From the NCBI GenBank assembly GCA_905178155.1, contig CAJINV010000002.1, positions 9,489,087-9,553,086 of the forward strand: a stretch of DNA of 64,000 nt. Direction: 5' to 3'. The position numbers were made by a program, and so were the translations under genes. This DNA is from Amoebophrya sp. A120 (taxonomy: Eukaryota; Protista; Dinoflagellata). Shown here one piece after another: positions 6,661-62,497 of this stretch. Every line of letters starts with the position of its first letter. Within the stretch, counting starts at the first letter, position 1. The notes under the pieces were generated by a model that searched no databases, was not told the origin of the DNA, and saw nothing but the letters and a program-made list of their open reading frames with translations.

Positions 6661-9600
6661 TTACTTCTTGTTGGCGCGAGGATAAATTTTCCTTAGTGCC
6701 GGAAGGAGCTGTCAACGATGGGTCTTTTGTTTTCTGCATGGAGATATTGACAGACGCATCAGAGATTTTATTTTCTATCTGATTCACGACCCCGAACGCT
6801 CTTTGCTCCACCTCGTCCCGAATGAGTGTGTATTTGCAGATGCGGTCGACCAGACCCGCGTCCTTGTGCTTCGCGCTGTGAGTCCCGACGAAGTTCGTGG
6901 CCCAGATGAATTTGTGCAGCAAAAAAAGCGGGTTTCCGTCTTGATCCTCCGGCTCCGTGGCCGGTCGGGGCTGCAGCAACGAGAGGCACTTTTCCGTGCA
7001 GGCCTTCAGCCAGGCTCTGGATTGGGCAGGCGAAAACGCCTGCAGTACGTGGGGGGCTCGGTCCAAAAACAAAACCAACGCCGCGTTCATGGCGGTAAAG
7101 TTGCGCAAGTTCTCGAAATGCTTCTTCTTCTTTTCCAGCAGTTTCGCCTCCCGCCGAAACAGCGTCAGCATATTGATCGCGTTTTCTCTTTTCTCGTTCA
7201 CAGCATTTTGGTCTACTGCGGTTGTACCAGCCGCAGTTGTTCCTCCAGCTCTCGGCTGTATTAAACCGGTCAGCGAGTACACTTCTTCCGCTGTGCTCCC
7301 CTTAACACCAAAGTCTTCGCAAGTGAGAGTCATCGGCTGTGGCAACCGCTTCTCCCCCTCGTCTTCCCGCGGGAACACCACCTGGACCGTTTGCTTCACG
7401 CCCGCTACCGGTGTGGCTTTGTCCACCCCGTCGGTCGTGTGGATGACTATGAGCTTTTTCGGCAGAGTGGTCGAGCTGTGCTGTGCCCCCTTGGAAAACA
7501 CGAGCGCGTAGGCCCGGGCGACCAAGCTGCTGTGCGCGCCCAACACGGACACCTCCAACTCGCAGGGGTTTACGATCGGGCCGAGGTAGTTGAACAGGGT
7601 CGGCGACTTCCTCCGCGCCGTTTTGGCGGCTCGCAGCTTGGAGTACTTCGCGCGCAGCGGTCCGAACTTCTTCAGGATCGGAAAGAACTGGCGGGCAAAC
7701 ACGAAGGAGAAGTTTTCCGTCTCGTGCAGCACTTTGTCCACGTTCTCGAAACTGTCGATCGCGGTCAAGTGGGCGCCCAGACTCTCCAGCAGGTCCGCCG
7801 CCCCGCTGCCCGCAGCCGTGGACGCTACGTTACCGTACTTCAGCATTTTGATCCCGAGGGAATCTTTACGGTCGAAGGCGGCGGCGGCGAGAATGCAGGC
7901 GGGCGTGGAGATGTTGTGCGGATTCAGGAGATCTCCCCCCGTCCCGACGATGCACCCCATGACGAAATCGCGATTCATGTTCTTCGTTTTGTCAAACTTG
8001 TAGTTGCTCTTCGCCACCTTTTTCGCTTCTTGCAGCAGAATCTCCCGGCAAACAAAGAGCAGGTCCGCGAGCTTCTGGGCGTACTGCTCAGTCTCCTCCG
8101 CCGTCCGAACTTCCTCGTATTCCACGAACGTTTTGGAAAATTTTGTGAAGAAGGAAAAGATTTTCGCCTCCACGAGCGGATTTTCCGCGATCAGCTGCGG
8201 GTCCGAGTGAATCAGAAACGTTTCCGCGGCCTTGTAGAGCTGGTCAGTTGTGATTTCTCTTGTTTCAGCTTCTTCACCTAAATGAGCAAACTCATTCCCG
8301 GTTGCAGGAGTTCTTCCAGACGTGCAACTGATGAACTGCTCCATCAAGTCTATCGCGTCCACCAGTTCAAGCATGTGGGTTTGTTTGCTGATGGTTTGCT
8401 GGTCCTTGTCTCCGCGACCGGACAGATTGATGATCAGGTGCTGACTGCTGTCCATACTTGCTGCCTTCTTCATCGCGCCGGCCACCGCGTGCGCGGTTTC
8501 CAGCGCGCACAGGATCCCCTCGGTTTTCGCGAGTTTCTGGTAGGCCCGCAAGGCTTCCAAATCCGAGATCGACATGTAGTTCGCGCGGCCGGTGACGGAC
8601 AAGAAGCTGTGGATCGGCGACACGCCGGTGTAGTCCAGCCCGGCGGACACGGAGTGCGAGCTCCCGGACTGTCCCCCGTTGGTCTGCAGCATCAGGTTCG
8701 TCGAGCCGTGGAGGATCCCGACCGTGCCGTCGGGGCCGGAAATGGACGCGGAGTGGACTACTTTGTTGTCGTCGAGAAATTCGTTGTTCTCCTCCAGAAA
8801 CCCGCCGGCTTCCACGCCGAGCAACTCGACCCCCTCGTCCCCGACGAACGCGTCGAACATGCCGATGCAGTTGCTGCCCCCGCCGACGCAGCCGACCACG
8901 CAGTTGGGGAGCTTCTTCTCGCTGTCGAAGAACTGCTTCCGCGCCTCCCGCCCGATGCAGGCCTGGGCCTCCCGCACGATGTAGGGGAAGGGGGCGGGGC
9001 CGATGCAGGAGCCGATCACGTAATGCGTGGACTCAATGTTCGACGCCCAGTCCCGCATCGTTTGGTTGACCGCGTTCCGCAGGGTTTTCGACCCGATCTC
9101 CACGGGGACCACCTTCGCGCCCATGGACTCGATCTATGACAGTGCACAACCCCCCCTCCCCCTTATTTGTAATGCAAAATCCCAAATCCAGCTTGAGCTG
9201 CTGCTTCGTAGCGCTGTTTGCATGACAAATCCTGGAAGCCCAAACAGCACTACACTACAGTCCAAATTTGTCATGCTTAACAGACATTCTTGCTCATGCT
9301 TGTATTGCTGTCCATGCCATACAAATGCGGGGGAGGGGGAGTTGTGCACTGTCATACGATCCGCTGCACATTCAGCTGTTGCCGCCGCGCGTCCTTGCCG
9401 CCCATGTAGATCGTGCAGGGCAGGTTCATATGGATTGCAAAAATGTCTGGGTCTGGAAGGTTGGAACTTGTGATGCTACCTTTGGACTCTAAAAAATTCT
9501 ATATTGCATGACCAGCAAGAGGAGTCCGGTTTGTGCTACGCGTGGAGGGCATTTGTCATGCGGAAGAGGCATCAGGAAGGCCTCTGAAAATCTGTGATGC

Positions 9601-12600
9601 TAGGGCTTCCATGACAGACATTCCGTGTCATGCAAAAACAGCATAACAAATTTCGGATTCTTCCAGACCCCGACATTTTTACATTTGATAGTTCAGGTAC
9701 GCGCAGCACACCGCGGTGGCCACGCCGTGCTGCCCCGCGCCGGTCTCCGCGATGATCCGGGTCTTGCCCATGCGCTTGGCCAGAATCGTCTGGAAGATCG
9801 CGTTGTTGATCTTGTGCGCGCCGGTGTGCAGCAGGTCCTCGCGCTTCAGCCAGATCGTCGCGCCGTTGAGGCGGGCCTTGTCACTATCCCTGCCGGACCG
9901 CTGCACCAAGTGGCGGACAAACTTGGTCAGGTTTTCCGCCCTGTACAGGCCCGTCGGCCGCGCGGCGATCTTCTGGTAGAGAAAATCGATCTCCTTCCAG
10001 AACGAGGGCTGACTATACACCTTCACGAACTCCCTCTGCAGCTGCTCGCACGCCCGGCGAATCAGCTGCGAAACCCAGGCGCCGCCGAAGAACCCGTAGA
10101 ACATGGGGATCCTCTGTGGTTTGCAAATGCGGGTCAAGGCCCGGATGCGGAGTTGCGACTTCAAGTGTTTCTTGTGTTGCTCAATCGGTTCCGCAATTTC
10201 GTACGCTTTCAGCGAGACGCTGTACGTGTCGATACTAGCAGCTGTCGTGGCTGCATTTGGACTCTGTCTCTGAGTGAAGCACTGCTCCGCGCCGGACGCG
10301 ACGTCGAACGCGAGACTGCAGCCTGTCGCAGCCATGAATTCCCTCACGTCGCTGTTTTCTAACAATCCCTCCCTTAAACCATTCAGATTCTCCGGACACA
10401 GCCCGCCGGCCACGAAGAGTTGCTTCTGCGGGACAACACGACGCGCTTCCACTCCTGTTGCCCCGGTGGTGGACGAAACCAGCTTTTTGCAGAACTGAGG
10501 CACCACACTGGCCGCTTCCCACGTGAGTCCGTTGCCCCCAAGCGAGCTTCCCTTCTTGCAGTCGAGCAGCAGACCGGTAATAACTTTATTCGAGGGAAGC
10601 AGCAGCTTGGAGCAGCTCTCGACCGTGGTGGCTTGCAGAATGGTTTCCGTGCTATCGAACGCGAAAGCGATAAGAAACTTGCGCGAAGATGTTCCCACTC
10701 CCTGCTGTGCGAGCTGTTGTAAAAAGGCAGCGTCCTGGAAAACCTCCGCCACACACTTCACCATCTCCGTCGTTCCGCCGCAGTGCAACTGGATCACGTC
10801 GGGAGGGAGTTTCAAGACTGCAAGCTTCGACACTTGCTTCAGGATTTCTTCCTTCACCGCGTTGAAAATAGTTTTTTTACCACCAGAGATCACGACAGCC
10901 GCTCCACTCGGCTCCGGCACGACCAACAGCGCCACCGACTTGGGGTTATAGCTGTGGTAGTTGCAGTTTTGGATCAAACTGAACATGTCCGCAATTTTGT
11001 TCAGAGACTCCTGCTCGCCATCGTTCCCAAACGCGTTGTCGTGGCCATACACGTAGCGTGGGGACTTCTCGTAGAAGTTGAACCCGAAAAAATCCACGCC
11101 GTCCGAGAGGGACGCGATAACTTCCTCCCGGTTCGTGTAGCCGCACACCTTCAACGGGGTGATCGTTTGCTCCGGAGGTTTATTTGCGCTCGTCAGTTGT
11201 CTGTTTCTACTACTTCGCTGGTGGCTGGATGGGTGTACTACCGGGACCATGTTTTTCTTGTTGTCAGTAAAAGCCGATTTGCACTTTGCGGCGTCAAAAT
11301 TTTCGTACAGGTTCTTCACCATTTCACTGTATTCCTTATCCGTAGCCACGCCTGACTCCCCGAGCGCGATCGCCTTTCGCAAGTACTGCGTCCCGATCAC
11401 CGCGGCGTTCGGAATCTTCTCGTACGCCGCTCGACACAGGTTCACATCCGACCCGTTTGTGATGCCGAAGCCCATCAAGAGGAAAAATCCGTGCTGCTGA
11501 AGCGTTTTCAAGTGGTTTTGGTAACGCGTCTTCACGATTTTGTCCTCGATCTCGAACTTGTTCTTCGCGCTTTTCGTTGGCATCGTGGACGTAGTGGCAC
11601 CTGAAAGAGAGATTTTCGTTTTAATAAATGTCGATGTGGCAGCACCTACTTAACTATACGATTCAAAAAAATTAGTAGACCGCTTGTTGTTCGGTGACGG
11701 TGACCCTTGCTGGCGCTTGCGATGAGAACCTCCTGGAACTACGCTGCATCACATTCAAAAGAAGACCGTCGTGAAAATCATTCTCAATGACCAGAACTAA
11801 AATTATCTACGTCATTTTTCAAAACAAAACCTGTAAATGAGCAGTACCTGTGACCCCCATGTAGGTTGTCGCGTAGATGATTGGCCTTTTCAGAACGGGG
11901 TCCGCTTGTTCCACTCCTGCACCTTCTGCACCCACAGTGCCTTGCAGTTCCACCATTTCGCACAACTCTTGCACCACGTGCTCCTCGACGTTTTCGGAGA
12001 GAACCGGGATTAAGGACAAGCCTGCCTTCCGAAACACGTTGTTCAGGTTTCCGACGTGCAAACAATCCGCCGTCATGTCCACCACGATCACGTGACGGAT
12101 GCCGAGCTGGACTGCCCGCGTGCCCCACTGGTCCCGAAATTCGAACTCCCCGGACACCGGCGACACCTGGAAGAAGGTGTTCAAGTACCCCATCAAAATG
12201 ACCGGGAGGGAGAAGTTCCGCGTCTTTTGCGCCTCCTCGATCAAGTCCAACACCGCGTGGATGCTGTGGATTCGCTGCTCCTGCAAACACACCCGGTAGC
12301 ACTCCTCGATGACCGGGCCGTCCGCGAAGGGGTCGGAAAACGGCACGCCGACCTCGATCGCATCCACCTTCTTCGAGTTTTGGATGCCGACCAAGCTGTT
12401 GATAAACTGCTCCTTGTTCGGATACCCAGCGCACGTGAAAACGAAATTGCAGAAGTCGTTGCTTTCCAGTTTCCGGAAGTACGACGGCGTGGCGGCGTGG
12501 GAGCGGGACTGCGGATGATTATCCAGCTTCCGGCGCTTCTTCAAGTTGATAGCGTCAATACTATTTTCATCCAAGTCACCTGTTCTTGCAAGAAGTTCGA

Positions 12601-15600
12601 CATCGACCATTTCCGCGTCTACCACCGCTCCACTATCATTAGCACTGCTGACTACGTCCACAGATGCGGACGCCGACAGCTCGGCGTCCTTCCCGAAGCC
12701 GTGGACGAGGAGGAAATTGTACAGCATTTCGTGTCCGCGCTCCGTGCCAATCGACTCGGGGTGGAACTGAACACCGTAAATCGGCAGGTGCTTGTGCTCC
12801 ACGGCCAGCACCACTTGCTTTTCCGAATCCGAGACTGCGGTACAACGCAGGTGCTTGTTTTTCCGCAACTGCTCCTTGTTCGCGACAATGGAATGGTACC
12901 GCATCACTTTCACGTCGTCGTTGTTCCAGTTGTTCGGGTCGTGCTTTTGACTCATCATATCATCCTGAGCCGCTGTCGAGCTTCCTGTTCCCGGTATTGA
13001 ATAGCTACGCGGGAACAGCGGATTGGAGTAGTTCGATTTTGAAACCACTTCGCTAAAGACCATTTTCGACGGCTTTCCGTGGTAAATTTCCTCTTTACAA
13101 ACCTCCGTCGCGCAGCCGAAGTACTCACAGAGCGTCTGGTGGCCCAGACAGATCCCTAAGAGCGGGATTTTCCACTTGACCGCAAAGTCGATGACGGGAT
13201 ACAGCACGTCCTTCACCTCCTTCGGCGATTTCGGGCCCGGGCCCAGCACGATGTGCGAAATGTAGGAAAAGCTGTCCGCGGGGCCTCTCCCCGTCCTGAA
13301 CGTGCTGGCCGAGTTGTCGAAATTTTCCAGGTTCTCCAAAAAAGAATTCGACTCAAATTGCTCGTCCCAGTACTTGATCAGCTTCATCAGATCCGGGTCG
13401 TCGTTGCGAGTCACCTGGATCGACGCCTTGTAGTAGTTCTCAGAATTTGAAGATGATACTTTCCCAATTTCTTCTGCTTTCTCCGCGTCGCACTGATTGG
13501 CGATGTGCGAAATGATCTCACTGAAGTACTGGTAGATGTTGTAGGTGAACGAGTCGTAGTTGTCGACCAACAGAATTTTGTGGTTCTGCTTCCTGTTCTC
13601 CAACGGCCGGGTTAAGGGGAGGTGCGACACCAGGCTGGAAGCGGTGCGGTTGGGTTTTTGGGCGGTGGAGGTGGACGACGTGTTTTTACTTTTATTTTCG
13701 CCAACAAGTTGATGCGCACGTCGCTCGGTCATAATTTTTGCGGTCGTGTGACTTTGCTTCTTCCCCTCCTCTTCTTTTCGCATTTCCTGGAGTCTTTCCT
13801 CGACCATGGTTTCCAGTCGCGCCGTCCCGTAACTCGACCGCGCACCGTAGTCGATTTCGCGGCCCTCGGACATTTGGAGAATTTTTTGCGAAGTAGAAGA
13901 TGAGGAGGACATTTTTTTCATCTCCGCTGCACCGGCCAGCTGCAACAAAGCAGACCCGGGCAGGGAAAGGAGATTTTTGTTCTTGTTGTTCCCGGTGGAT
14001 GCGCTCATCAATCCCTGTTCTGCCTGCTTGATCGCGGATTTCAAAACGTTCATTTTGAAGCCGGTTTCTTCATACTCGGAGGTCGGGTCGCTGTCGAACA
14101 CGATTCCCGCGCCGGCTTGCAGCTGCACCTGGTTTAACGGTACTGAAGACCGACTCTCATCATGATCCGGTGCCTTGGTCACGATGGCGGTGCGGATGGC
14201 GATACAGGTTTCGGTCGTCAACCCATCGTAGTTGAAAAATCCGAGGCCCCCGGCGAACACCCCGCGCGGGCGGTACCGCTCCATTTCCATGATATCCTTC
14301 ACGGCTTGGATTTTCGGCGCCCCGGACACCGTGCCCATCGGGAACACCGCCTTCATGACCTGCAGAGCGGGGACGTCCGGCAGCTTGCCGTCGGCAGTAC
14401 AACCGGACAACTGCAAAGGCACTTGGTGCTGGGTCGGCTTCGCGCGGCCAGGAGCAGCTTGTGCTTGTTGTAGTCCACCTCCGGGAAATAAAGAAGTCAT
14501 TTTTCCTCTCTCTTCTTCGTACTTTTTCTTCGCCCGAAACTCCTTTTTCCTTGTCTGGAATTTGGACACCGCCGCAGCCAGGTCCTTCAACATTTTCTCG
14601 GTCTGCTCCAGATCCACACAGCCGTCGGTCACACTCACGCCATACTTCAGCTGCAGCTCCCCGGCCTTGTACTTCGCAACGTCCAGTTTCTGGTTCCCGC
14701 ACAGCAAATTCGACTCGATCATGACGCCGAGAATCGGCGGGAACACCGGCTCCTCCGCCTGCTCCGCCACGGTCTCGCCGACTACGGTCTCCAACACCTG
14801 GTCGCACAGATCCTTCAGAACCACGGGCTGCCGCGTGAAGTCTTTGTTCGCGTTCCCGTGCGAGCAGTCGATCAGCAGCTTTTTCGGCGCTTCCGGGACC
14901 AGTTTGGAAATGGCGTTCTTCACGTGCTCCCGGCTGTAGTTCGGCCCGTCCTTCCCGCCCCGCAGCACCACGTGCGCGTCGGGGTTGCCGTCCGTCTTGA
15001 ATACCCCGTAGATTTCCCCGATCGCGATCTGCGACCGGTTTTGCTTGATCTGCTGCAACTTCTGGGCTTTGGTCGACGAAGATGAAATCGCCGTGCGCGG
15101 CTCGACGGCACTGGAGGCGGAGGACGCGGACGAAGCAACGCCACTGTTGTTAGTTGTAGAACTGTCAAGACCGGATTGTTGTTCGAGAGAGGAATCATGA
15201 GCAGTTGTATGGCTGTTCACCTCGATCGGCGAGAGCAACATGCGATTCAGCTCCTCCTGGTCGGAATTGTCGCTCGCCGTGGTGATGGCCCCGCCAAACG
15301 CGTGCCCGAACGACTTCTCGTCCATCGGCCCCAGGATGCTGTAGGCCTTCCGCCCGGCGACCACGGCGTCGCAGGCCACCTGCACGTCCCCGCTGGTGCC
15401 GTTCTTGAAGCCGCAGGGCACGTTCTATCAAATGTAAAAATGTCTGGGTCTGGAAGAATGCAAGTTTGTCATGCTTGTCTGGCATGACTCTTAAATCTGT
15501 CATGCACGTTACCCAAGAGCTGCGTTTTTCTGTCATGCAGAAGCGCAGTTTGTCATGCAGAATAGGCAACACCTAGAAGCTCAGAAACTTGTCATGCTGA

Positions 15601-18600
15601 GCCAGCAATTGTGGCCTCCTCATGATATGCCACACAGCATCACAAGTTTCCAGACCCAGACATTCTTACATTTGATACGTTCGCCCCGGACACCATCTCG
15701 CGGTGCACCTGCGACTCGACGGTGCGCGCGCCGATCGCGCCCCAGGACACCAGGTCCGCGATGTACCGCGCGCACACGGGGTCCAAAAACTCCGTGGCGA
15801 CCGGTAGGTCAAAATGCTCCGTGATGTCCAGCATCAACGAGCGGGTCAGGTACAGGCCCTTCTGGATGTCGCAGCTGTCGTCCATGTTTGGGTCGTTCAC
15901 GTACCCCTTCCAGCCGACGGTCGACCGCGGCTTCTCGCCGTACACGCGCATCACGATCAACAACTCGTTCTCGTACTTCTTCGCCTCGTGCGCCAGGAAT
16001 TTGGCGTACTTCAGCGCCATGTCGTAGTCGTGGACGGAGCAGGGGCCGATCACCACCACCAGACGGTCCGGGTTGGGCCCCTTCTGGTGCAGAATCTCGT
16101 GGATCTCGGTATAACCTGCTCAGGCGTTACAATCTCAAACGTTACAATAGAATCTGGGATTTGTATTGCATGAGGAACATGACAGACTCGCAGAGCGTTC
16201 CACTTTCTGCAATACAAATTTCGCCAGATTCTAGTGCGGTTTGGGGCTCCGAAACTTGTCATGCGCAATCCTGTGGGACTAGGGTAGATCATGCACTTCC
16301 TGCATCACAGATTTCCAGATTCTATTGTAACGTTTGAGATTGTAACGTTTGAGCGGGCCATACTCGGTTTTCGCCGTGTTGTTCACGATTTTCGTCTATC
16401 AAATGTAAAAATGTCTGGGTCTGGAAGATTGCAACTTGTCATGCTGTTTTTGGACTCCAAAAAATTTCGTATTGCATGACCAGCAAGAGGGGCACACTTT
16501 GTGCTACACGGACAGGGCATTTCTCATGCGGAAGGTGCATCAGGAAGGCCTCTAAAAGTCTGCGATGCTACATCATGCATTACAGGCTTCATGGGTCATA
16601 AGAAATATGCATGACAAGTCTTGCATTCTTCCAGACCCAGACATTTTTACAATCCATATCGTCTTCTCGCTCGGCGGCAATAAATTCCGCAAGTGCCGGG
16701 GGAGCGGGAAAATTTTGCTCGGCTTGTAAGACAAAACGCGAGGTTTGAAGGGGAAGGAAAACCGAAACGTGCTGGACTGGAAGTTCGCGATTGTGTGATC
16801 CTTCGCCTTCGTGAGAGGCGTTTGCGGGGCGACGTTGAGCTTCCGCTTCTTCAAGGATGGCGTCTGGAACAGTAACTGGTAGTCCTCATCGTCGAGTGCT
16901 TTTCCGGAAAGCACAGAAAATTTGTTACTATTTCCTGCGGCCGATGACGTGTCCGCGACGAACCGGGCTTGCCGTTGCAGGTGCGCGCTGTCCTTGATGC
17001 CGCTGCTTCCCGCCGGACCCCCGGCGTGGATCTGACCCACGACTTTGGAGCACAGATGCATCACGTTCGGGAAAAATTTGATTTTCTGGAACTCCACGCA
17101 CTCCACGGAGCCGGGCTTCGCGATCTTGCCGATGTCGTTGCGGGCCAGGTCGACCAGCATGACGTGCTCCGCGAGCTCCTTCTCGTCGTGCAGCAGTCCG
17201 ATCGCGGTCTCCACGTCCTCTATGGATTGCAAATATGCCTGGGTCTGGAAACTTGTGATGCTGGGCGGCGTATCATGAGGGAGCCACAAGTGCTGGCTCA
17301 GCATGACAAGTTCCTGAGCTTCTAGGTGTTGCCTATTCTGCATGACAAAGTGCGTTTCTGCATGACAGAAAAGTGGGGCTCTTGAGTAGCGTACATGACA
17401 GATTTAAGAGTCATGCCAGACAAGCATGACAAACATGCACTCTTCCAGACCCAGACATTTTTGCATTTGATATCCTCCTTGTCGTCGAAGAACTTGGACC
17501 GCGGCCGCGTCCCGGCGATCGGGTGGGTGGTGATCTGTCCGGAGAAATCCACGGACACCTGCAGCTCCGGCGACGCGCCCACGATGAAGAAGTCGTCCAT
17601 CTTCAGCAGGTAGCGGTACTGCGTGGTCGGGGAAATTTTATTCAGCGCGTGGAAAATCATCCAGGCGTCCGCGCGGGTCTTCTTCTTCTCGATCCGACTG
17701 GGCACCGCCTGCAAAAAGTCGCCCCGGGTGACGCGGTGCTTCAACGTTTCCACGATTTTCTCAAACTCTTTCTGGGAGAAATTGGATTCGTAGTTCTCTT
17801 CCTCTTCGTACGTCATGGTCGAGAACGCGGAAGTTGCAGCGCCTGGTGCAGGGTGAGCGGAACTACCACCCGATGCGGTCGTTGTTGACCCCGCGAGCAG
17901 TAGTTCTTTCACGTCCTTTTCAAGCTCGTCCAATCTCGTCACCGCAGCGGCATAAGAATCCACGAATTGCTTCACATCGAAAATAGCACCACTTCCATTG
18001 TCTGATACTTCGCCCGTGGAAGAAGATCCTTGCCCCCGTCGTACTATCAGCTGCTGCTCCAACTCTTTGGAATGATTTACTTTCACCGTGGCGCACATCT
18101 TGATCCTCTTTCCCGCAACATCCAGTTCCAGAAACGAGTCGTACTGACACAAAATGGTCGTCGGACGCTCGGTATCAAATGCAAAAATGTCTGGGTCTGG
18201 AAGAATGCAAGTTTGTCATGCGTGTCTGGCATGACTCGAGAATCTGTGTTGCAGAGGCACGAAAAGGCCCTCTTATCTGTCACGCAAAAACGCACTTTGC
18301 CATGCGCAATACGTAAGACATGGCAGCCAAAAAATTTGTCATGCATAGCTGCGTATTGCAGTGCGTCTATCATTCTCTTGTAGCATTACAAGTTTCCAGA
18401 CCCAGACATTTTTGCATTTGATACTCGGCTTCCTTGTTGGCTGCTCTGGCGCTTTCCGCAGTAGATCTTTTTGCCTTGTGCTCCTCCAGCACCTTCGCCA
18501 ACGACGGTTCGACCTTGTGCATATTTTCGAACCCATAGTATCCAATATCCTATGTAAAAACGTACCCACCCCATAGTCAAGATGGGGAATTGGCTAGACA

Positions 18601-22147: not shown

Positions 22148-22207
22148 AATGTTGTGCGATTACTTTGGTGTACAACTGGATTGTCTTTGTTCCCACACCT
22201 CAAACTA

Positions 22208-51092: not shown

Positions 51093-52244
51093 TTTGGTTT
51101 TCCGCCGTTATATCACAGCTGGAAAGCACTAGGAAACGCGTACGCGGCAGAAACAGGAGCTGGGAAACATCGAAACATACATCATTACACAAGGGGTCCT
51201 GTGAAGTCCTGTTTTTTCCCACAAGCATTGTCACGAAAAGCAGATGAAAAAAAAGTACTTGAAAATCTCCCTCACGCGGGTACTAGCGAGAAAAAAAACG
51301 CGCTCCGATAAGTATTTCGCAATTCAAGAAAAATTATCGGTAGCTAAAACTGGTCAATCATGCTCTCATGTGTCTTCTGTCGCTCCTCAGGTCAAAGCCC
51401 TCCAAAACGGGTCGTACCCTTGGAAAAATTTCTTCCAAAAACACAACGTTGATCCTTATCAGAACACGCTTTTACTACATCCAAGAAATTCTCTTCCGCC
51501 CATGATGCTGATGCCGGCTCTCGTTCCGGTGGGTGTAGTTTCGCGCGACTCGGTGAGCGAGCTGCTGATAGTACAAGATACAGAGTCCGGCTAGGTAAGA
51601 CGTTTGACACGAAGGCATGATCGGATGAGAAAGATGCTGTTCCTCCCCGATCACTTTGTTCTGCCGCCTGCTATTGTTAAGGTATAAAGGAACCGACTTC
51701 ACGAACTGCGAAACAGGTCGCAGCTACATTGAGTTTGCGATAATCAGATAAGGATACTAAAATAAGGTTTCTAAGTTTGTTGTAATATCACATCAAATTT
51801 ATTCTTTAGATTTGATCCTCCGCGAAGGACCGTTTTTGCGTTTCAGCCTGCAGCGCTCTGCATTGCGTTCTTGCTGGCTGGCGCACACTTTCCACATGCG
51901 CCAGCTTTGCTTGTCTGATAGCAAAAGTGTTTCCAATAATCCAGACTGAGTTTGAAGTTTATTTCTGTCGAATTCATACTTGAAGTTTCTAGTTGATCAG
52001 CCTTCGGAAGCTGCAAGCATTTGAAGTACAACATTTTTACAGTGCAACTAGTGCATATAAGCATATAGACTTCCATTATAATGATGTTTCTTTTTCGCTT
52101 CTTTACTCCACATAGTACTTAATTTTTGACCACGGGACGGGGTCGCAACCGCGGATCCGAAATCAATCGCAGCCGCGATCCTTTTGGGTCTAGGTGCAGC
52201 ACGGTTCTACCTAGCTGAGTATCCTCTACGGGAAACCAGCCAGA

Positions 52245-55200
52245 TTAGTCCGCCACGCCGCGGTGCCCGCTCTCGTCGTGCACCTGAACGAAGGACGGGA
52301 ACGTTTTTTGCCTCAGCCGGTCCAGCTCGGTCCGCAACGTCTTCAGCTCCTCGTCCTGGTTTGTCATGCGGTCCTGCATCACTTTTCGTCGCCGGGCCTC
52401 CGCGAACCGCGTGTTGGGCGTCTTGTAGTCCAACTCCGCAATCGCCCCGCCGCCGCCGATGGTCTTTTTCCGCTTGCCAATCATGTGCAGCGGGGTGGTG
52501 GTGCCGCCCTGCTGCAGGTTCTTTATCTTTTGCCGCTCGTTCACCGACTTTACCACGGAATCCAGCTCATTGGACATGCCGTCGTTCTTCTTCTGCAGCT
52601 TCCGTGTGTCCTGCGACAATTTCGTGTACTTCATCTTCCAGTTCGCAATGTTGGTCACGCCGCCCTTCGTCACGTGGTCCAGCTTCTTTTCCAGAATCTC
52701 GATGGCTCGCTGCCGCTTCTTCTCGTCGCCGCCTGGTTAGGTCGGGATCAGGTGGGGGTCACATACTTGCGTGCCCTTGCAAAACATGTATGATCTACAA
52801 AGTACAGCTCTCCAATCATGCAAACGCTGCAACAATGTTGATCCTCATCGGACCGACAGTTTCGCTGAAATCGCAAAAAAAAGCAACGTTTTCTTCACGT
52901 CATTCCGCGGAAAGAAAAAATTGTATACCGCTCATGATTTCCTGCACGTCCTTGGTGACACGCAAGAACTGCACGTCCTTGGTTCGCTCTTGCAGGTCGG
53001 TTTTTTGTAGGGCAAACATGTTCTGGTCGTACGCCACCATGTTGATCTTCTTGCGGAACTCGCGAACGGCCTCCAGAAGTCCGACCTTCTCCCCGCCGAG
53101 CTCAAGAATCCTTCGGTTCCTCGCTTCTATCACCTCCTTGTGAAACGTCAGCGCGTCGGAATAGTCGGTGACTACCGCTGCGGGCGGCACTTCAACTTGC
53201 CCCTGTTTTGTGACAGCACATCGTGAAATCATTCTCGAAAAAAGTACTTACGAATGTTTTAGCGCGCGAAACTGAAGTATCGCCGGACTCGCGGGATTAG
53301 AGGAGCGCAGGAATCAATTAGCGCACTACTTACGCGGTGCAGCAGTGTGTTTGCTAATCAGCGCATTACTTAAGAGCCGCGCGAGTTAAGCAGTGCACTA
53401 CTTAAGGAACGCACTACTTAAGGAGCGCACTACTTAAGGAGCGCGCTACTTAAGGAGCGCACTACTTAAGGAGCGCACTACCGAAGGAGCGCACTATTAA
53501 AGGGGTTAAGGAGCGCACGAGTTCATCAGCGCACTGCTTAATGTTGAGCGTACGCGTTAATCAGCGCACTACTTAAGCGACTCAGTGCTTAAAAGGCGCG
53601 CGAGTTAATCAGCGCACTACTTAGCTGGAGGCACAGGAGTTAATCAGCGCACTCCTTTACGAGCGCACGAGTTAATCAGCGCAGTTCTCAAGGGGCGCAA
53701 GTAGAACCAGTTAGTGCACTGCTTAAGGAGGGCATGGGTTAATAACGAGCGCATGACTCAAGGCACGTCAAATGCAGACGACTTCTGTACTAGGATGCGA
53801 GCCAGCAATGTTTTCAACACAGCAATAAACACTTTTCTACCTGCTTCAGCTGCACCATTATCTCGTAGTCCTCTTCCTCGTTTTCAATCATGCTCTGATG
53901 CGCTCGCAGGTCGTCCACCTCCTTCTCGAAGACCGCGGTGTTGGTTTCCACCTCGGCTTGGTAGTGGTCCATAAGCTTCACCATCTCCACGTGCACCCCG
54001 TTCAACTTTTGTATTTCGATCTCCATCAGCATCTTCTGGTGCTTCAAATCCAGCATCAGGTCGAAGTTCTGCTTCCCGATGCCCTCCATGGAACAGTCCT
54101 CGGGGAACTTCAGCGTTTCCTCCGGCAGATTGGGCAGCACCGGCACGTGCAGGGTGTCGATGTTCTCCCCGTTGTAGTCTACCTCGATCATGGGCTCGGG
54201 CTTCTTGCTGCTCGGGGACGTGTTGCCCGCGTCCTCCACGGGCGGCTTGAAGGGGTTCAGCTTCTCGATTGTCACCGGAAACGGCATCAGAATCGGGCCC
54301 TTCACGTTCACGTCGCCCGCCGCCCCCGCGGGCTTTGGGGGTCGCTGCTTGAACAGCTTCAGGAGGAAGGTCTGTTGATCCGGTTCCAGCTGCGGGAAGT
54401 GCTCGCGGAACTTGGACACGAGCTCCTTATCCCGTTTCACGTGCTCCTCGTGGATCTTCTCGTGGGTACGGACCTGGAGGCGCGCAATGTCGATTTAGCT
54501 ATGGCTGTAGGCGGCTACGAGAAAAAGCAAATTCAGCTCGAACCGATCAAAAACAAAAAGCACTGCAGTCATGCATTTCTTAAACTACATACTACCTTTT
54601 CTGCGAACATCTCCAGCACTTCCTCGGCCTCCTGCACCTTGCCTTGCGCGGACTGTATTTCTTGCAGGATGAACTCCTTAATCCCTTGGTCTTCCACCGC
54701 TTGCAGCAACGCCAAGAACAGTATCAAATGCAAAAATGTCTGGGTCTGGAAGAGTGCGCGATTTGTCATGCAGCTTTTCCATGACCCATGAGGTCTGGAA
54801 TGCAGGACCTAGCATGACAGATTCTGCGCGATCTCTCTCATGCCTATCCTGCATGAGAAACTCCCTCGCGACTTTCGCAAAACTGGACGACTTTTGGTAA
54901 TCATGCAACACAGATTTTTGCATGCCTCAGATTTAGCATGACAAGTTGCATTCTTCCAGACCCAGACATTTTTACATTTGATATACAGGCGGATGATGTA
55001 GATCTCCTGCCAGTAGTAATGCAGGTCCGCCTGGTGCCGGTCCGCGGCGAGCAGGGACAGCTTGTCCTCAAAGTTCTTTTTCAGTTCGAGCACCTCCGCG
55101 CGCAGCTTCGTCAGCTCCGCGTTCAGCAGCTGCTTGTAGTTCTCCTGCTCGGTCGCCAACGCCGCGCACCGGGCCTCATACTCCACGTACAGCTGCTGCT

Positions 55201-58200
55201 GCAGTTCCGTCCAGTGCTCGGGCGGCACCTCGTCCATCCACACCTCCCGGTCGACCACCCGCTCCAACGGCGTCAGGTCCTTGTTCGTCTTCAGGCGCCC
55301 GCCCATCATCTGTTGCAAGGCACGCTGCCCCGCGTCGTTGGTTTTCTTCGCGGACTTCTCAGCCAACAGCTTGGCCTCCTCGTCCTTTTTCTTCTTCTCC
55401 TCGGGCGAGATGTATTTCGCGACGGTTACTTCCTTCTCCTCCACCTTCAAAACGGACTCCGGAACTTCTTTGCCGAGCAGCTCCGGCTCGTCGACGACCT
55501 CGTCGATCTGCAGCTCTTTCAGGATGGACCGAATTCGGTCTATCTTCTCTTTGATGTGCGACATCACTTCCTGATAAAGTTTTTGGAGCATGAAAAAACG
55601 TATGCAAAAAGATGAAACTTCTTACAACCGTTATCATTTTTTTTTTCAGTCCGCCGAGAACAACTCATCTCGGACCCCCGCGACGCTTACAACCGACGCA
55701 GGATCAAAATCCGATCAAGCAGCTTCCACAGTAGCTAGAAGTGATATTAAAAAGCTGCACCTTAAAGAAGTACCTTCTTCGTGCCCTGGCACTTCCCGAA
55801 TTTCCGGTTGAAAGCTTTCTGCAGATCTGTGGAGAGGGTTTGCAACAGCACAATCTGGGTTTTTCTTCGCATGTTCGTCGTGAGTTCAAAGGGGGTGTAC
55901 ACCCGGTTTCTAACCGCCAGAGAGTCGTCCAGCTCCTTCTGCTCTGCTTCGGTCAGCTTCTTGCCCTGGAAAAGAACGCGTTGTTGAGTCAAGGCAAGAA
56001 CATTGACTACATCTTCTCAACAGTTGACAGCTTTTTCCGCGACGAAATTCAGAAATCTTTACATGCACATCTTCAGCGAAAGCTGAGTAGATACTTACAC
56101 TTCCAGACGAGGAAAAAAGTAGATTGATCCCTGCTATGTAGTACAACTCACTCTTTATACCTCCCCCGTCGTGGGCGAGTACAGATTTTCGTCACCTCCG
56201 TAGAAGTTGATAAAGTAGGCCCGGTCCATCCCGGGGGGCAGAAATTTGCCCGCGTCCAGATACCAGTCGTTGTCGACGTTCGCTTCCTCCTTTTCCAGCA
56301 GCTCTACGTCCCGCAGCTGCGCGATCATCCGGGTCCGCGAGCTCTCGCTCGCGTGCAGCTTCCGCTCGGGGTAGTTCGCGACGCTCTGCGGCCCCTGCAG
56401 GCTGGCGATCGTGCACCCGGGGGTCTTCATCGGCTGCCAGAACTCCTGCACCAGCCGCTTGCAGATCAGGTTCCGGGCCAGGTTTTCCCGCTCCACCCGA
56501 TCCCGGATGTCTTCGCACTGCTTGTCCGCCTTCTCCACCAAAAAGTCCCGCTCCTCGGTGTCGATGCAAAACTCGCCGCGGTCGAGCTTCTCGAGGTCGG
56601 GCGCCGACCCGTTGGCGGTGAGGAAGGACGAAAGTCGCTTCCTCAGATCTGTCAGCCCTGACTGCAGCTGCTGCCGTGCCTGTTCGTTCGCGGCAACCAC
56701 CGCCGGGTCCTCCTCGCCCACGGCCTCCGCCGCGCTCGCGGCGGCCGCCGCTGTTCGTCGTAGAAGCAATTGCAAATGGGAAGATCATCTTCTATGTACA
56801 TAAGAACCAATCCACGCGGCGTGCGCCGCGTGGGAAAAAATACAACAACTCTTCAGCGTAGGCCACATTTTAATGTTTAGCTCGAGTCTCTGTCAAATTT
56901 TGTCTGGCCTGAAAAATTTTCACGCTCGACTTCGTCGGCTCTAATAAAGTGGCCGCGTTTTGCTTTTCTCGAAGTGGCCAAATTCGGGAGAAGACAAAGA
57001 CGGCCAGCTTTTGGCTTCGCCTCTGGGGCCCAGACTAACGAACAAGCAACGAGGTCGCTTCTCGCTTTACAATAGTGGCCAGCTTTGGCGGCTTTTACTT
57101 CGGAGGCCCGGCCAGATCAGGAAGAAACCAGGAAAGAGCTCGCCTGTTGTCCGCTACCTAGCCAGCCCTCGCTTTTTGCCCTTACGAAAGCGGGCAGCTT
57201 TGGTTTCTTGACAAAGTGCCAGGCGCTTCTTGAGCGACAGGAATCGCGGCAGCAGTGCGCGAAGCATCTAAACGCGAACGAGGCCCAGCCGGGCTCTTTC
57301 CACACGGCGCGCTAGTCGAAGAAAACACTTTTTGAGTTTGCAAGCTTCAGAAAAGCTGCAGAAAACCTTCAGAAGATTTTTGGACCTTCAGAAGAGTCTC
57401 AACCTTCAGAAGGCCTTCAGGAAGGTTTTTTGACCTTCTGAAGGTGAAAAAATAGTGCGTCACTTTTTGCAATTTTTTTTGTCAAAAAATGCCATTTTTT
57501 TCATTGATTCGGCCTTCAGAAGGTTTTCAAAGCTCCACCTTCAGAAGATCAAAAACCTTCAGGAAGGTCAAAAATGGACAGCAGAAAAACCTTCAGAAGC
57601 TTTTGTGCATCAAAATTCTTCTGAAGGTTTCAAAAACCTTCAGGAAGGTCAAAAAGCTTCAGAAGGTCACCTTCTGAAGGTGCGAAAAAAAAAACTGTTT
57701 TTTTTGAAACAGGACCTGCATCCGTTTCGATTTTGTGTCTTTTTCAAAACTAACAGTCACTTTTGAACCTTCAGAAGATTTTTGAATTCTTCTGAAGGTT
57801 CTTCTGAAGAATTTTCTTCTGAAGGTTGTGGTGATTTTTTCCCTTACAGTCCTTCTATTAGTACGAATAGAAGTTTGCAGTTTTTCTTTTGCAGCTGTAG
57901 AAAAAAAAACAACTTGCAAGAGTTTCGACAGAAAGACTGAGACCGACGAGCGGCCAGAAGTTCCTACTTCCTAGTAGAAAAGCAACTTTAAGATTATACT
58001 CCAAACGGCCATCTCCGTCTCGCTTTCGCCCTTGGCTTCTACTGCGACATTTCTGCCGAGTTTCATGTCTTTCCAATCCTGTACGACGTAGCTCCCCTCG
58101 GTGACCACGTTGTCCACGCTGAACGTGCACACCTCGCTACTGGAGGTCATCAGCCCGTAGAACGACGAGCTGCTACTGCTCATCTGCGCCGCGAAGCTCC

Positions 58201-61200
58201 ATATCCCGCCGCCAAACGGGTCGGCAAGCTGGTACTTCCGTATCGGCATGCTTTTCTGCACCAGAATCACCACGCCGTCCATGGTGGCGGCCGCGAGGAG
58301 GGAACTGGTGATGCACCGCAGGCTCGATATTGGCTGTTCGTGCTCGACCAGGACCGCCTCGGCGACCACGGTCTCCTTCGTCAACACCGATGTGCTGCTT
58401 GTCGCCGGCGTGGCGTACGCGCCGGACGCGGGCCCCGGGAACAGCGAGGTGGTGACCAGAATCTTGGGCAATTCCGGCTCCTCCTCCGGTTTGGCGTTTT
58501 CGTCGTCCGTCCCTCCGGGTGCAGCGGATTCCTCGCCGGCCTCCGCGGCGGGTGGTTCCCCGGTCGGCTCGGCCGCGGCGGATGCAGCCAGTTCCTGCTC
58601 CCGCTGCAGCAAAAGCGCCTTCACCTTTTCTTGCGCGGACAGAATTTCCGAAAAGGACAGCGAGCTGACCACGCCGTTGCAGTAGCCGACGTAGATCGTG
58701 TCCGGGTCCGCATTTGACATGGCGACCGAACACGGCTCGGCGCCGAGTTGCACGGGCGTAACGACCACTTTTTCCAAGAACCCGGTCTCCACGTTGCAGC
58801 TGCTGGTCGCCTCTTGCGTTGTCTTCCACGTCCAGAGCCGGTTACTGGCGGAGAGACTACTCGCGTAGGTCGCCGTTCCGACGGCCGCACACGTGCTGCT
58901 GAACGAATGATCGAGGGGAAAAAAAAAGCTACGCGCGACTCGTGGGAGCTTCTGTCATGCAAAGTAAGTTGTAAAAGTACCACATTTGCGTTTCCGTCTT
59001 GGCTAAGTGCCTGAAGATGAAGCCACAAGAAGAGACCATCGTGAAGATGTCGTCTACGAACGTCGACTGTTTTCAGCACAACTTTCCTTTCTATTATGAA
59101 TTAACGTTCCGCCAGCTATTTAATCAGACGAGCTATGCTAGCAAATTTTTCGCCTGATACGCGTCGGAACTGGCGGATGCGACGTCCTCCACAGCGCAGG
59201 AGTCCAGTTCCACCCCATCTGGGTCGGTGCCCAGCGGTATTTTGCCGTAACACTTCAGCGCCTTTTTGTCCTCGACCGCGATTGCGAACAGGCTGCACCC
59301 CTTCACACTGTCAAAGGCCGACGCCAGCAACAGATTCCCGGTGCTGTTCCAGGCGAGTTGGGCGGAGAAGCCGAAGGACGCGAGCCGCACTGTGTCGAGC
59401 GTCTCGCAGTTCCCGCTCGGAAGCAGCTTCAGCACCCGGATCACGCCAGACTCGGTGCCGACCAGAAGGCTGCTGTTGGCCCCGTCCGCCGCGAGCGGCG
59501 CGATGGTGTTGATCCCGTAGGGCAGACGGACGGTCTTGACCGCCCCGCTCTGCGCCACGCTCTGGATCAGCCCGGTCTCATCCGCCGTTACGAAAGAATT
59601 GTCCGCGTCGTGTGGGTATGGAGTGGAAATAAAGCTGAATTTCTGTTGTACTCGTACAACATCGCTGAGTAAACTTAGGTCAGAACTCACCTCGTCAACC
59701 GATCGTGCGCTGCAATTATTTCTGCAATTTTTACATAGCATGACGAATGCAACAGAATACAACTTCTTTTCCAACGCATAAGAGGAAGCAGCTCGCGGTG
59801 ATGAAGTTGACGTGGCACTTGGAGAGAAATTTCCAGTCCAGTGCTAGCTCTTCGGCTTCGCCAAGGATGTCTTCTTCCAATTTTCGTGCGACCTCGTCGA
59901 GCTCCGGCTGCGTCAGCAGGGAGAACTTGAACAAGGCCCCGGACGCGGTGGTGACGAGCGCGAACGAGTAGTCCGGGTTGGGCTGCAAACTGGTCACCGA
60001 CCCGGAGGCCGCCAGTTCCGGGGACGCGGCACTGTCGCTGATGTAGCACATGCGGAACAAGTCGGACAAGTTGTTCAAGTTATTCTCCTATGCATTGGAA
60101 ATATGTCTGGGTCTGGAAACTTGTAATGCACGTCAGTGAATACTAAGCACTCTCACTAAGCACTCTGAGAGTGCTTAGTATTCACTGACTCTCAGAGTGC
60201 TTAGTATTCACGACTCTGTAATGCAGCGCCAAGCATGACAGATTTTTTCGTCGCGTTGTGTTGCGTACTCCGCACGAGAAACTGCATTTCTGCATGACAG
60301 GCAGAGGGAACTGTTCGTGGCCACGCAACACAGAGTCATGCCAGACAAGCATGACAAATCTCGCAGTCTTCCAGACCCAGACATATTTGCATGTCATATC
60401 TCCTCCTCCGCGTCGTACAGCCAGTACACGAAGTACTGCTTCTATGCAAGAAAAAAACTGTGTAAGTGTAACTCTGTAATGCAGAACATGCAACAGAGTT
60501 ACACCTGTCATGCCAGACAGCCATGTAGTCCTGTCTTCCTGTGTGTTTTGCCTTACAATCCACGCATGACAGGTTTTCTCTGTCATGTAAAGCAAATTTG
60601 TGATGCTGCCAGCCAAAGAAAGTTACACTAACACAGTTTTTTTCTTGGATAGCTTCGTGTTGCCGTTCGGCAGCGCCACCTCGTGCGTGGCGACCAGGAA
60701 GGAGGACATGAACATCAGGTTCGTCACGTAGCTATCCTATGTAAAAACGTCCCCACACCAGAGTCAAGGGATCTCGCAACACAAATCGAGAAATTTTGGG
60801 GGTCCAGCATGACAAGTTCGTCTCTGTATTGTAGTGCAGTTTAGCAAGCACAGCCGCAACACAAATCCATCTACTCATCCTGTCGACAGCATTACAAAGC
60901 GCAAAACGCGATTGAAAATGCCTCTCATGTGGATGCGCACTACAAATCTTCCTGTAGCTGCAAATCTGCATGACAACTCTAGGGTGGGTACATTTTTGCT
61001 CAGGATAGTAGCCGTTCACCAGCCGCTCGTCCTCGACGGCCGAGAGCGAGCGCCACGTGTACAAAATCATCCCGGTGTTATGGAGTGTAAAAATGTCTGG
61101 GTCTGGAAACTTGTCATGCTGACTGGCGTAGCATGAGGAGGCCACAAGTACTAGCTCAGCATGACAAATTTCTGAGCTTGTAGGTGTTGCCTATTCTGCA

Positions 61201-62497
61201 TGACAAACTGCGTCTCCGCATGACAGAGAAAAACGTCTCTTGGGCAATGTGCATGACAGATTTAAGAGTCATGCCAGACAAGCATGACAAACATGCATTC
61301 TTCCAGACCCAGACATTTTTACATTTGATAGGTGTCCTTGCACAGCAACAACACCGCGTTGCGCGTCGAAACCAGGAACCGACCTCGCGGCGTCCACGTG
61401 TACCTGAGAAGTAGAGCGCGTCGTCGGGGTATTGACTAACTTCTATTAAAGTGGCACAAGTATGTTTGTACTAGATTCCACTTTTCCACACTGAAGGAGA
61501 CCGCAGATTGCACAAACCAAGCGACTAAACAAGTGGGTGCGCTTCCTTGCGGCCCCGTTGACGTCGGCTAAAAGTAAAAACAAAACCCTGTATCAGTACC
61601 CTTCGAGCGGTGCGAGCATCTCGGAATCGCCCAACTCCGGGATGCTGTTATCGCAGATGGTGACGATGTAACGCTTGAACCGCCGGGCTATACGCACCAG
61701 CTGGCACACTCGCCGGGCGCTGTTGCAGAGAAATACTCGGTCCTTGTCCAGCGGCGAAACGAAAAGCCGGTCCACCTGGTACCGCTGCAGCGCAGTTACG
61801 TTTTCACATCCGGGGAGCAAGCTGCCGTCCGCCGTGCTGTAGATCAGCAGCTTCGTGGCGGTCCTGTTTTGGTTTTTCTCTTTTGCAGAAGCTCTACCTT
61901 TACCTTTAGTACTTGGAAAAGTGAATACTAAAAATGCAACGTGGTTGCGCAACCTCCAGCCAAAGACGAACTAAACCGGAGATGGCTGACGAGCGACTTC
62001 TGCATGCATAGTGTATGTTTGGCCACGGAATTGCCGCTCCCGAGTTCATCTCACACGAGGGCACTTGCCGGACGAGAAGCAACCGCAACCAACGAACCGG
62101 ATAACATCAAATCAGCAATTCCAAATCCTTACGAGCTTTTCCCCAGCGCAAAGAGCCTGGATGCGCAGGCGGAAAATTGTAGGTCGGGGATATCGAGCTC
62201 CGCCGCTTTTGGGATGACGAACTCGAGAGCACGGTTTTTGAAAACGTAGATGCAGGGAAAGATGCCGCTGGTCGCCAGCGCGACGTAGGGACCGGTCGCG
62301 GCGAGGCATTTCGCGGCAAAAACGCCCTCGGGGAGGGGCACGAACTCCCGAGTCTCCGTCGCGGTATCGAAAAAGCACAGGTGCCGCCCCGCAACGTACA
62401 CAACCGTGCTGGTGCCGCAGAAGGCACAGCTCAGCAAGCTCGGCGTGCTGGTGTAGTGCAGCGCCGCACTCGTGAAGATGCTCTTGGGCGCCGTCAT
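52245..62497 (-). CDS. CFAP43: Cilia- and flagella-associated protein 43 (WDR96)-like, multi-exon
   Basis: N-terminal beta-propeller-like exons and C-terminal coiled coil; LKQ|GQVEV..DYSDA..GEKV..EFRKKI..RVTK and terminal ELDRLRQKTFP resemble CFAP43; five introners plus GT-AG introns. Confidence 0.8.
53203..53840 (-). other. Canonical GT-AG intron (638 bp) in CFAP43
   Basis: AAGCAG|gtagaa...aaaacag|GGGCAA restores LKQGQVEV. Confidence 0.85.
53310..53730. repeat. Intronic minisatellite, 16-bp core ggagcgcactacttaa
   Basis: About 6 near-perfect tandem copies at ~53395-53500, flanked by degenerate gagttaatcagcgcactacttaag copies. Confidence 0.9.
54722..54983. mobile_element. Introner, TIR type A, 262 bp (reverse orientation to 35447 and 44532)
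   Basis: TIR tatcaaatgcaaaaatgtctgggtctggaaga; TSD aacag/tacag. Confidence 0.9.
57344..57827. repeat. Intronic cluster of ~20 short palindromes CCTTC(A/T)GAAGG
   Basis: cttcagaag, cttctgaag and cttcaggaag repeated with A/T-tract spacers. Confidence 0.85.
60089..60398. mobile_element. Introner, TIR type A variant, 310 bp, with internal hairpin/duplication
   Basis: TIR tatg...tg.aaatatgtctgggtctggaa; TSD tctcc. Confidence 0.91.
60443..60651. mobile_element. Introner, TIR type F, 209 bp
   Basis: TIR tat.caagaaaaaaactgtgt.agtgtaact; TSD gcttc; removal gives NGNTKQYFVYW. Confidence 0.92.
60733..61007. mobile_element. Introner, TIR type C, 275 bp
   Basis: tatcctatgtaaaaacgtccccac / gtgggtacatttttgctcaggata; TSD gtagc. 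Confidence 0.92.
61079..61330. mobile_element. Introner, TIR type A, 252 bp
   Basis: tatggagtgtaaaaatgtctgggtctggaa / ttccagacccagacatttttacatttgata; TSD ggtgt. Confidence 0.93.

Follow-up and report, generated by a model that had tools for sequence, protein, structure and literature searches.

In a 64,000-nucleotide stretch of the genome of the dinoflagellate Amoebophrya sp. A120 (assembly GCA_905178155.1, contig CAJINV010000002.1, positions 9,489,087–9,553,086; hereafter the window), we analysed 23 introner elements, hairpin-ended insertions that interrupt coding exons. Their removal from transcripts, always together with one copy of the flanking 5-nt repeat, is real and precise at the nine sites with RNA evidence and most likely takes place at the RNA level. 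It occurs without GT/AG dinucleotides, as an original prediction made from the sequence alone had proposed, since exact skips were found at sites where no canonical register exists. Two window proteins were 100% identical to Amoebophrya sp. A120 proteins and the elements are the very introner elements published for that strain, to which the prediction had rightly linked them, so that the finding as such is already known. New here are the near-absence of selection for splice dinucleotides, removal in either orientation, the absence of a G-U bias in the stems, the lack of any special standing of the terminal TAT and the exclusion of a cut flush with the 5' end, with the caveat that figures S19–S25 of PMC7789003 may show more on repeat length and border position. 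These data bear on the open question of how tens of thousands of introns are removed without splice dinucleotides in a genome in which U1 was not found.

Scans for inverted ends with flanking repeats recovered all 23 predicted elements, of 151–355 bp and spanning 9135–61330 (first element, 9135–9356; last, 61079–61330), each within a minus-strand coding frame. TAT...ATA ends together with an exact 5-bp duplication were present in 21 of the 23, and no such element arose in composition-matched resamplings of the window (n = 100). The statement that all have a 5-bp duplication held in its exact form for these 21, while 36396–36661 and 54722–54983 each match at only four of five bases; the former of these ends in ATG on the plus strand and hence starts with CAT on the sense strand. 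The terminal inverted repeats (TIRs) fell into seven types (13, 3, 2, 2, 1, 1 and 1 copies), in agreement with the roughly seven predicted, and follow the pattern TAT, seven looser bases, A run, the A run being weaker in two types (9135/36396 and 16110) with TAT kept, apart from the copy with CAT at one end. An internal TGTCATGC-like motif occurred in all 23 elements (16.4 per kb inside vs 0.22 per kb outside). Retention of any of the 23 introduced a stop or a frameshift; removal of the element plus one duplicate opened long minus-strand frames, with orthologs gapless at several of the junctions, in line with the predicted restoration of coding.

The elements are repeated in the genome, as families within the window and through BLAST matches among the fetched loci for 22 of them; 36396 had no match by BLAST against the fetched related loci. 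Short, TIR-ended, flanked by a target-site duplication (TSD) of constant length and without coding capacity, they have the anatomy of miniature inverted-repeat transposable elements (MITEs). The terminal-repeat pattern had no match in viral contigs and none in prokaryote genomes. A further candidate at 51457–51938 was rejected, as end-to-end folding was absent and BLAST found no relatives in the fetched loci. The 23 elements are as follows, all on the minus strand (−), with duplications given as read on the sense strand.

9135–9356 (−), introner element, 222 bp: duplication GATCG; tryptophan synthase beta region; skipped in RNA contig; AT5 ortholog gapless
9429–9690 (−), introner element, 262 bp: duplication TGAAC; skipped in RNA contig; AT5 ortholog gapless
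15426–15677 (−), introner element, 252 bp: duplication GAACG; DAHP synthase region; AT5 ortholog gapless
16110–16362 (−), introner element, 253 bp: duplication CCGAG; AT5 ortholog gapless
16397–16658 (−), introner element, 262 bp: duplication GACGA; AT5 ortholog gapless
17221–17472 (−), introner element, 252 bp: duplication GAGGA; shares its gene with 15426, to which it is 90% alike but oppositely oriented; AT5 ortholog gapless
18173–18423 (−), introner element, 251 bp: duplication CCGAG; in a divergent stretch of the AT5 alignment
18546–18825 (−), introner element, 280 bp: duplication TTGGA; AT5 ortholog gapless
18868–19018 (−), introner element, 151 bp: G-free duplication ACCTC; in a divergent stretch of the AT5 alignment
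23509–23863 (−), introner element, 355 bp: duplication GGCCG; permits a GC-AG register
35124–35382 (−), introner element, 259 bp: duplication CGGGC; RNA joint skips 264, 4/4 runs
35447–35712 (−), introner element, 266 bp: duplication GCTGG; RNA joint skips 271, 4/4 runs
36396–36661 (−), introner element, 266 bp: sense CAT start; duplication AGAGG/GGAGG (4/5 bases, synonymous); removal inferred from depth
38905–39167 (−), introner element, 263 bp: duplication GGCGA; permits a GC-AG register
39221–39499 (−), introner element, 279 bp: G-free duplication AACCT
44147–44469 (−), introner element, 323 bp: duplication TCTGG; RNA joint skips 328, 4/4 runs
44532–44789 (−), introner element, 258 bp: duplication CAGCA; RNA joint skips 263, 4/4 runs
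50468–50789 (−), introner element, 322 bp: G-free duplication TTACC; RNA joint skips 327, 3/4 runs; A25 and AT5 orthologs gapless
54722–54983 (−), introner element, 262 bp: duplication CTGTA/CTGTT (4/5 bases); RNA joint skips 267, 4/4 runs, with 4 letters of ambiguity
60089–60398 (−), introner element, 310 bp: duplication GGAGA; GA-AG register possible
60443–60651 (−), introner element, 209 bp: duplication GAAGC
60733–61007 (−), introner element, 275 bp: duplication GCTAC
61079–61330 (−), introner element, 252 bp: G-free duplication ACACC

Removal from transcripts and presence in DNA

Evidence from RNA was drawn from four contig runs (X1–X4), judged to be RNA since GT-AG introns are missing from them; they come from one study with at most two samples and are possibly not independent of the annotation. 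Among the 15 listed of the 28 RNA joints, six lacked an element plus 5 nt (35124, 35447, 44147, 44532, 50468 and 54722), the G-free site 50468 being among those precisely skipped, and the removed length was element plus 5 at every joint seen. One X1 contig contained exactly 67 letters between 9129 and 9691, which is the length of 9357–9423, so that both 9135 and 9429 were removed, without an added codon. At 36396, the bin depth in X1/X2 was 21.3/11.9, where 21.34/11.92 was expected if the element is removed and 41.78/23.34 if it is kept. RNA contigs therefore gave evidence of removal at nine of the 23 sites, where the elements are absent from mRNA and have non-GT-AG ends. The same contigs splice ten minus-strand GT-AG introns, and in all runs covering the sites the contig that runs through them lacks the element.

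Since a hairpin between direct repeats is a classic substrate for reverse-transcriptase slippage (PMC8240250), cDNA joints alone are no proof of removal, and conserved frames provide an independent argument. The AT5 ortholog g13589 was gapless at the junctions of seven of the nine elements in its counterpart (9135, 9429, 15426, 16110, 16397, 17221 and 18546), and A25 and AT5 proteins were gapless across 50468, which also fixed the strand of that gene as minus. Neither of the outcomes named beforehand as refuting, splicing at cryptic GT/GC-AG sites or retention in dead genes, was seen at the nine sites with RNA evidence.

In the DNA run X5, contigs passed from exon into element by 22–38 letters at all 12 listed borders, with a depth at exon-element borders of 41.8–46, like that of unique DNA, which speaks against the DNA-level removal that the prediction had offered as an option. 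X5 represents one DNA sample and its contigs hide rare variants; no element-free DNA joint was present among the 15 listed of the 528 rows of the joint table. Moreover, X1 had zero depth over 20272–22927, yet contained element ends joined to other flanks, indicating that the elements are transcribed. In the raw RNA runs X9 and X10 the window genes were uncovered and only element-like reads were found; about 130 reads of X9 join an element end (16397–16445) to one unrelated flank, and may reflect retention of an element by some abundant transcript, or else another strain.

Splice dinucleotides, cut register and symmetric ends

When every cut giving the same product was listed, GT-AG was possible at none of the 23 elements and GC-AG at three (23509, 36396 and 38905), which confirms the earlier count; the four G-free sense-strand duplications (ACCTC, AACCT, TTACC and ACACC) were confirmed too. 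A GA-AG register, which the prediction did not mention, was possible at three (17221, 36396 and 60089), and AT-AC at none. A scan of metagenome contigs yielded 154 loci with related copies, all from one public assembly (JACKZZ01), up to 97% like those of the window and without exon overlap with it. Among 238 non-overlapping related elements, the 5-bp duplication was exact in 178, had one mismatch in 34 (about 14%), two in 9 and more in 17; among 290 related repeat pairs, 175 had an exact duplication of 5 bp, 1 of 4 bp, 5 of 3 bp and none of 6 or 7 bp. The strand of these copies was assigned with a codon model trained on window genes, which called 22 of the 23 window elements correctly, 11 of them being in its training set (the wrong call was 39221, where reading of the frame gives minus), and the dinucleotide tests were made on the 124 of 238 copies with an exact duplication and a confident frame. 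In these, GT-AG was possible in 10 where chance predicts 4.6–5.0 (P about 0.03, uncorrected), GC-AG in 1 (chance 2.9–3.5), GA-AG in 9 (5.0–5.6) and AT-AC in 9 (3.8–7.0); 18 duplications were G-free (18–23), and at least 104 copies allowed none of GT-AG, GC-AG and GA-AG. Selection of target sites for GT-AG is at most weak. The elements do not have U2-type ends (GT/GC...AG), which were possible in 11 of the 124 related copies, and they are not U12-type introns, given the absence of AT-AC registers in the window and of minor small nuclear RNAs, as reported for A120 (PMC7789003).

The possibility of GT-AG splicing with one added codon at duplications with G at both ends was rejected, as no codon is added at 9135, 15426 or 35447. 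The four G-free duplications (18868, 39221, 50468 and 61079) contain ACC, which makes GT-AG possible on the opposite strand, and the 50468 joint was indeed labelled GT..AG on the plus strand; we rejected this reading as chance because the orthologs put the gene on the minus strand. Antisense GT-AG was possible in 3 of the 124 related copies where 4.3 were expected, without enrichment, and at all four G-free sites it is probably fortuitous; aligners may call such joints canonical on the wrong strand.

The imperfect duplication at 54722 limits where the cut can lie: its transcript keeps the fifth base of the downstream copy, so that the cut starts at least one base before TAT and a cut flush with the 5' end is excluded. 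All ten RNA-supported canonical introns examined start with GTA, four of them with GTAT, and the N-TAT left by a cut one base before TAT resembles GTA, the main hint in the sequence for a spliceosome that does without the first G. The canonical introns in 43839–54595 (n = 10) mostly have an A-rich tract, and no pyrimidine tract, before CAG/AAG. Single differences between duplicate copies were synonymous in 20 of 34 cases, vs 25–30% under neutrality and 37–47% if one copy is free (P 0.008–0.10 over the assumptions tried; post hoc), and the number exceeds the prediction of a fixed cut (P 0.02–0.10); an excess of synonymous differences would follow from a floating junction, under which both duplicates are part-time exon. 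Inside the duplicated codon, 8 of 20 differences were non-synonymous, five of them at codon position 2, and the codon model gave no register signal on 25 mismatched duplications. The base kept in mRNA at mismatched duplicates reveals where the cut falls and is measurable from existing reads: a fixed register would suggest a spliceosome to which N-TAT stands in for GTA, and a floating register a new repeat-guided reaction.

Families occurred in both orientations (31:25, 20:10, 6:9, 6:4, 4:5 and 6:2), even within one gene (15426 vs 17221), so that any signal must sit in the symmetric ends. The inner repeat was predicted to be paired in all 23 elements (probability 0.78–1.0), the outer TAT/ATA in 17, and the six elements with unpaired tips include three removed copies (9429, 36396 and 50468). 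In 150 ends that had not been picked by the search pattern, TAT matched at positions 1–3 in 136–140, vs 140–143 for positions 11–13, some of the misses being indel shifts. TAT thus shows no more conservation than the remaining repeat and the CAT-start copy 36396 is removed too, as judged from depth, so that the strict TAT/ATA rule put forward in the prediction finds no support in its stated form. The ends resemble those of a transposase substrate, with the stem seemingly a by-product.

Routes of removal

We give an even chance to a reading in which the elements are non-autonomous MITE-type DNA transposons that a relaxed spliceosome removes via their paired inverted ends; two of its components taken together, removal on RNA and an inverted repeat that sets both cuts, are highly probable. 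The element would be inserted by a trans-acting integrase-type DDE transposase, with the TGTCATGC-like motif as its likely binding site, and would be removed on RNA, where the symmetric 25–40 nt repeat, by forming a stem or by binding a protein, may draw the exons together and place both cuts within the 5-nt repeat at a total distance that stays fixed, starting at least one base before TAT; catalysis would be carried out by the U2/U5/U6 core. We favour the spliceosome because A120 keeps 83 of 89 spliceosomal proteins together with U2, U4, U5 and U6 (PMC7789003), and because the core is kept in a lineage where 95% of introns escape GT/AG (PMC13326754); the slight enrichment of GT-AG-compatible sites in related copies also supports it. 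Several points weigh against this reading. All RNA evidence consists of cDNA-based contigs from one study and at most two samples; a long stem has both cut sites at its base, which would force a branch point into the stem itself or into either strand of an unrelated core; the GT-AG enrichment is weak and concerns one of several classes tested; the synonymous excess is a hint that the cut floats, out of keeping with the precision of a spliceosome; and canonical introns end with an A-rich tract and CAG/AAG, the elements with TTTT-N7-ATA. In addition, mismatched stem pairs showed no wobble bias (G-U 141 vs A-C 137; 164 of 170 elements). Of the predicted terminal RNA stem that directs excision, the stem itself was recovered in all 23 elements, while selection on RNA pairing as such left no sign, and its directing role is what we infer.

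A spliceosome-independent excision on RNA, as for euglenid introns, is a serious contender that we rate somewhat short of even: an endonuclease and ligase, or else a protein that binds the TIRs and may be a domesticated transposase, would recognise the paired ends, cut within the 5-nt repeats, join the exons and release a circle or a linear RNA. The elements show no dinucleotide or orientation requirement, and both the stem predicted in every one of them and the synonymous excess between duplicates fit such a reaction, as does the report that U1 was not found in A120 (PMC7789003); euglenid introns with the same TIR/TSD anatomy, moreover, are reported to leave as circles without lariats (PMC11282704). 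The Euglena CDG/CH'G signature is however missing from the elements, which start with TAT(C/G), the nearly full A120 spliceosome must work without a recognisable U1 anyway, and the slight GT-AG enrichment points the other way. That a sequence-blind, repeat-guided, non-spliceosomal cut-and-join of RNA removes roughly 30,000 introners, with paired inverted ends recognised in either orientation and a junction that floats in the 5-nt duplication, we consider unlikely; if true, the nucleus would possess a second splicing system, one that neutralises transposons, with exons as safe landing sites. Programmed DNA-level excision resembling that of ciliate internal eliminated sequences, which would provide element-free genes in a transcribed nucleus or stage, is very unlikely, given the passage into the element at full depth at the 12 listed borders and the presence of element ends in RNA contigs; transposon ends and the precise loss of one duplicate would suit a domesticated transposase, and the DNA contigs come from one sample and drop rare variants. 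No separate somatic nucleus is known in this parasite, which also counts against DNA excision.

The skips could alternatively arise from reverse transcriptase slipping across the hairpin between direct repeats ("falsitrons"), with ribosomes bypassing the hairpin between duplicated codons in the cell, an account that we hold to be highly improbable. The anatomy of the elements matches that of falsitrons exactly, and these reach up to 70% of cDNA reads (PMC8240250); a repeat of 5 nt invariably contains one complete duplicated codon, and differences between copies are often synonymous. Against it, all 23 elements break the frame if kept, nine of them in one conserved gene, and every covering run has an element-free contig running through the site; the 8 of 20 differences in the duplicated codon that change the amino acid argue against ribosomal bypassing, as the take-off and landing tRNA would tolerate them poorly. 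Scarcely credible, finally, is ordinary splicing at nearby cryptic GT/GC-AG sites, or death of the genes: GC-AG is allowed at three and GA-AG at three of the 23 sites and RNA evidence covers nine, but the joints are exactly element plus 5 where no canonical register exists, no codon is added at the three G...G duplications, and orthologs are conserved across the junctions. Cryptic-site splicing is refuted at the nine sites with RNA evidence, subject to the caveat on cDNA.

Transposon origin, known relatives and host genes

Insertion favours coding sequence, the junctions being coding-like in 167 of 200 cases, vs 155 of 337 random positions. Across the 154 related loci the insertion phase was skewed (75:36:36, P 3e-5), the duplication starting at codon position 3 in 75 of 147, and the symmetrised target showed only a mild S-S-W-S-S tendency, which may explain the skew. 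The 5-bp stagger and TA ends suggest an integrase-type transposase, as judged from sequence. Among the related loci, a 972-bp element (L079, 1501–2472), whose 30-bp ends are perfect and whose duplication is 5 bp, interrupts a motif of 25 residues, restored by its removal, that we take to belong to the largest subunit of RNA polymerase II; removal must extend to long copies in essential genes as well. In a search for an autonomous copy, six longer candidates (457–1031 bp), whose open reading frames (ORFs) were read by eye, had no evident transposase ORF; the authors of PMC7789003 found no transposase in A120.

In A120, more than 60% of introns are non-canonical, 29,850 are repeated and the mean non-canonical length is 240 nt; its introner elements have inverted repeats of TAT, seven looser bases and at least three A, direct repeats of 3–5 nt (5 bp in the Fig. 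S19 legend), RNA-seq support and a predicted hairpin, with borders undefined and the mechanism left open (PMC7789003). The elements described here show no difference in kind, the repeat being exactly 5 bp in 178 of 238 related copies and 5 bp with at most one mismatch in 212. Most A120 families have also been described as TIR DNA elements of about 150–350 bp whose repeats measure 30 bp and whose ends are mostly non-canonical; one of them, family 38 (about 810 bp, "5-bp TSD, TA/TA Termini"), has remnants of an integrase-like ORF, and automated TSD calls range from 2 to 6 among 38 of the 58 A120 rows (PMC12130899). The window copies share the 5-bp TSD and TA termini with family 38, but are shorter and without coding capacity. 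Other Amoebophrya strains have mostly GT-AG introns (PMC12005148), and introners in general are covered in PMC9860276.

Beyond Amoebophrya, euglenid nonconventional introns have TIR/TSD anatomy, non-canonical borders and a probable MITE origin (PMC11282704), the Euglena signature being CDG/CH'G with constant spacing, followed by a purine beyond the 3' end (PMC12501133). The A120 elements share the anatomy, but start with TAT(C/G) and have no exon-side preference; their consensus tables lack the 5'-N3CDG...CH'GN5-6 plus purine arrangement, and target bases follow exon composition. In Fritillaria borealis, MITE-derived introns with TIR and TSD occupy lineage-specific positions, AG-AC/AG-AT dominate, and the introns are processed by a modified spliceosome in which U1 is kept and U2AF is duplicated (PMC11282704, PMC13326754); TIR/TSD anatomy and mass escape from GT-AG are common to both, whereas in A120 no dinucleotide dominates and no U1 was found. 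Ginger elements have TGTNR termini and mostly 4-bp specific targets, and a 5-bp TSD occurs in TDD-4 and TDD-5 (PMC2836005); the window elements resemble them in TIRs and in the 5-bp TSD of TDD-4/TDD-5, but their targets are unspecific and their TAT(C/G) ends, instead of TGTNR, rule out membership in Ginger. Our literature search, in which subscription journals were thinly covered, returned nothing resolving introner excision.

Three host genes or gene regions were delineated.

5774–19518 (−), fused anthranilate synthase/DAHP synthase/glutamine amidotransferase/TrpA/PRAI/TrpB/TrpD/IGPS gene (Pfam), with nine elements and one GT-AG intron (11601–11847)
49125–51092 (−), host gene of unknown function that holds element 50468, with conservation in A25 and AT5
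51523–62600 (−, approximate limits), host gene region with CFAP43 coiled-coil matches (Pfam PF25828), carrying 54722 and probably 60089–61330

After removal of its elements and its intron, 5774–19518 forms a single frame, free of stops over 3773 codons and encoding about 3,756 aa when started at the first Met; its product matches AT5 g13589, a fused DAHP synthase/tryptophan gene (PMC6482013). Of this frame, just the final 2,608 aa are represented in the deposited A120 protein P0001, the annotation thus missing the element-rich N-terminal third. RNA joints support the 51523–62600 region, its extent beyond 55049 being deduced from sequence. Pfam returned nothing for nine further window ORFs or proteins, and Rfam no family within the window. 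A gene at 34900–40630 (−) holds five elements and has the motifs YGGRAGC and GRAGYL, which we take to be LanC-like, Pfam being without match for the pieces tried.

The window also contains other repeats: an array of an 89-bp unit repeated 10.6 times (1061–2009), a 16-bp tandem array (53360–53700) inside the RNA-supported GT-AG intron 53203–53840, a palindromic CCTTCAGAAGG-type array (57340–57800) and an array of a 23-bp unit (63477–63995).

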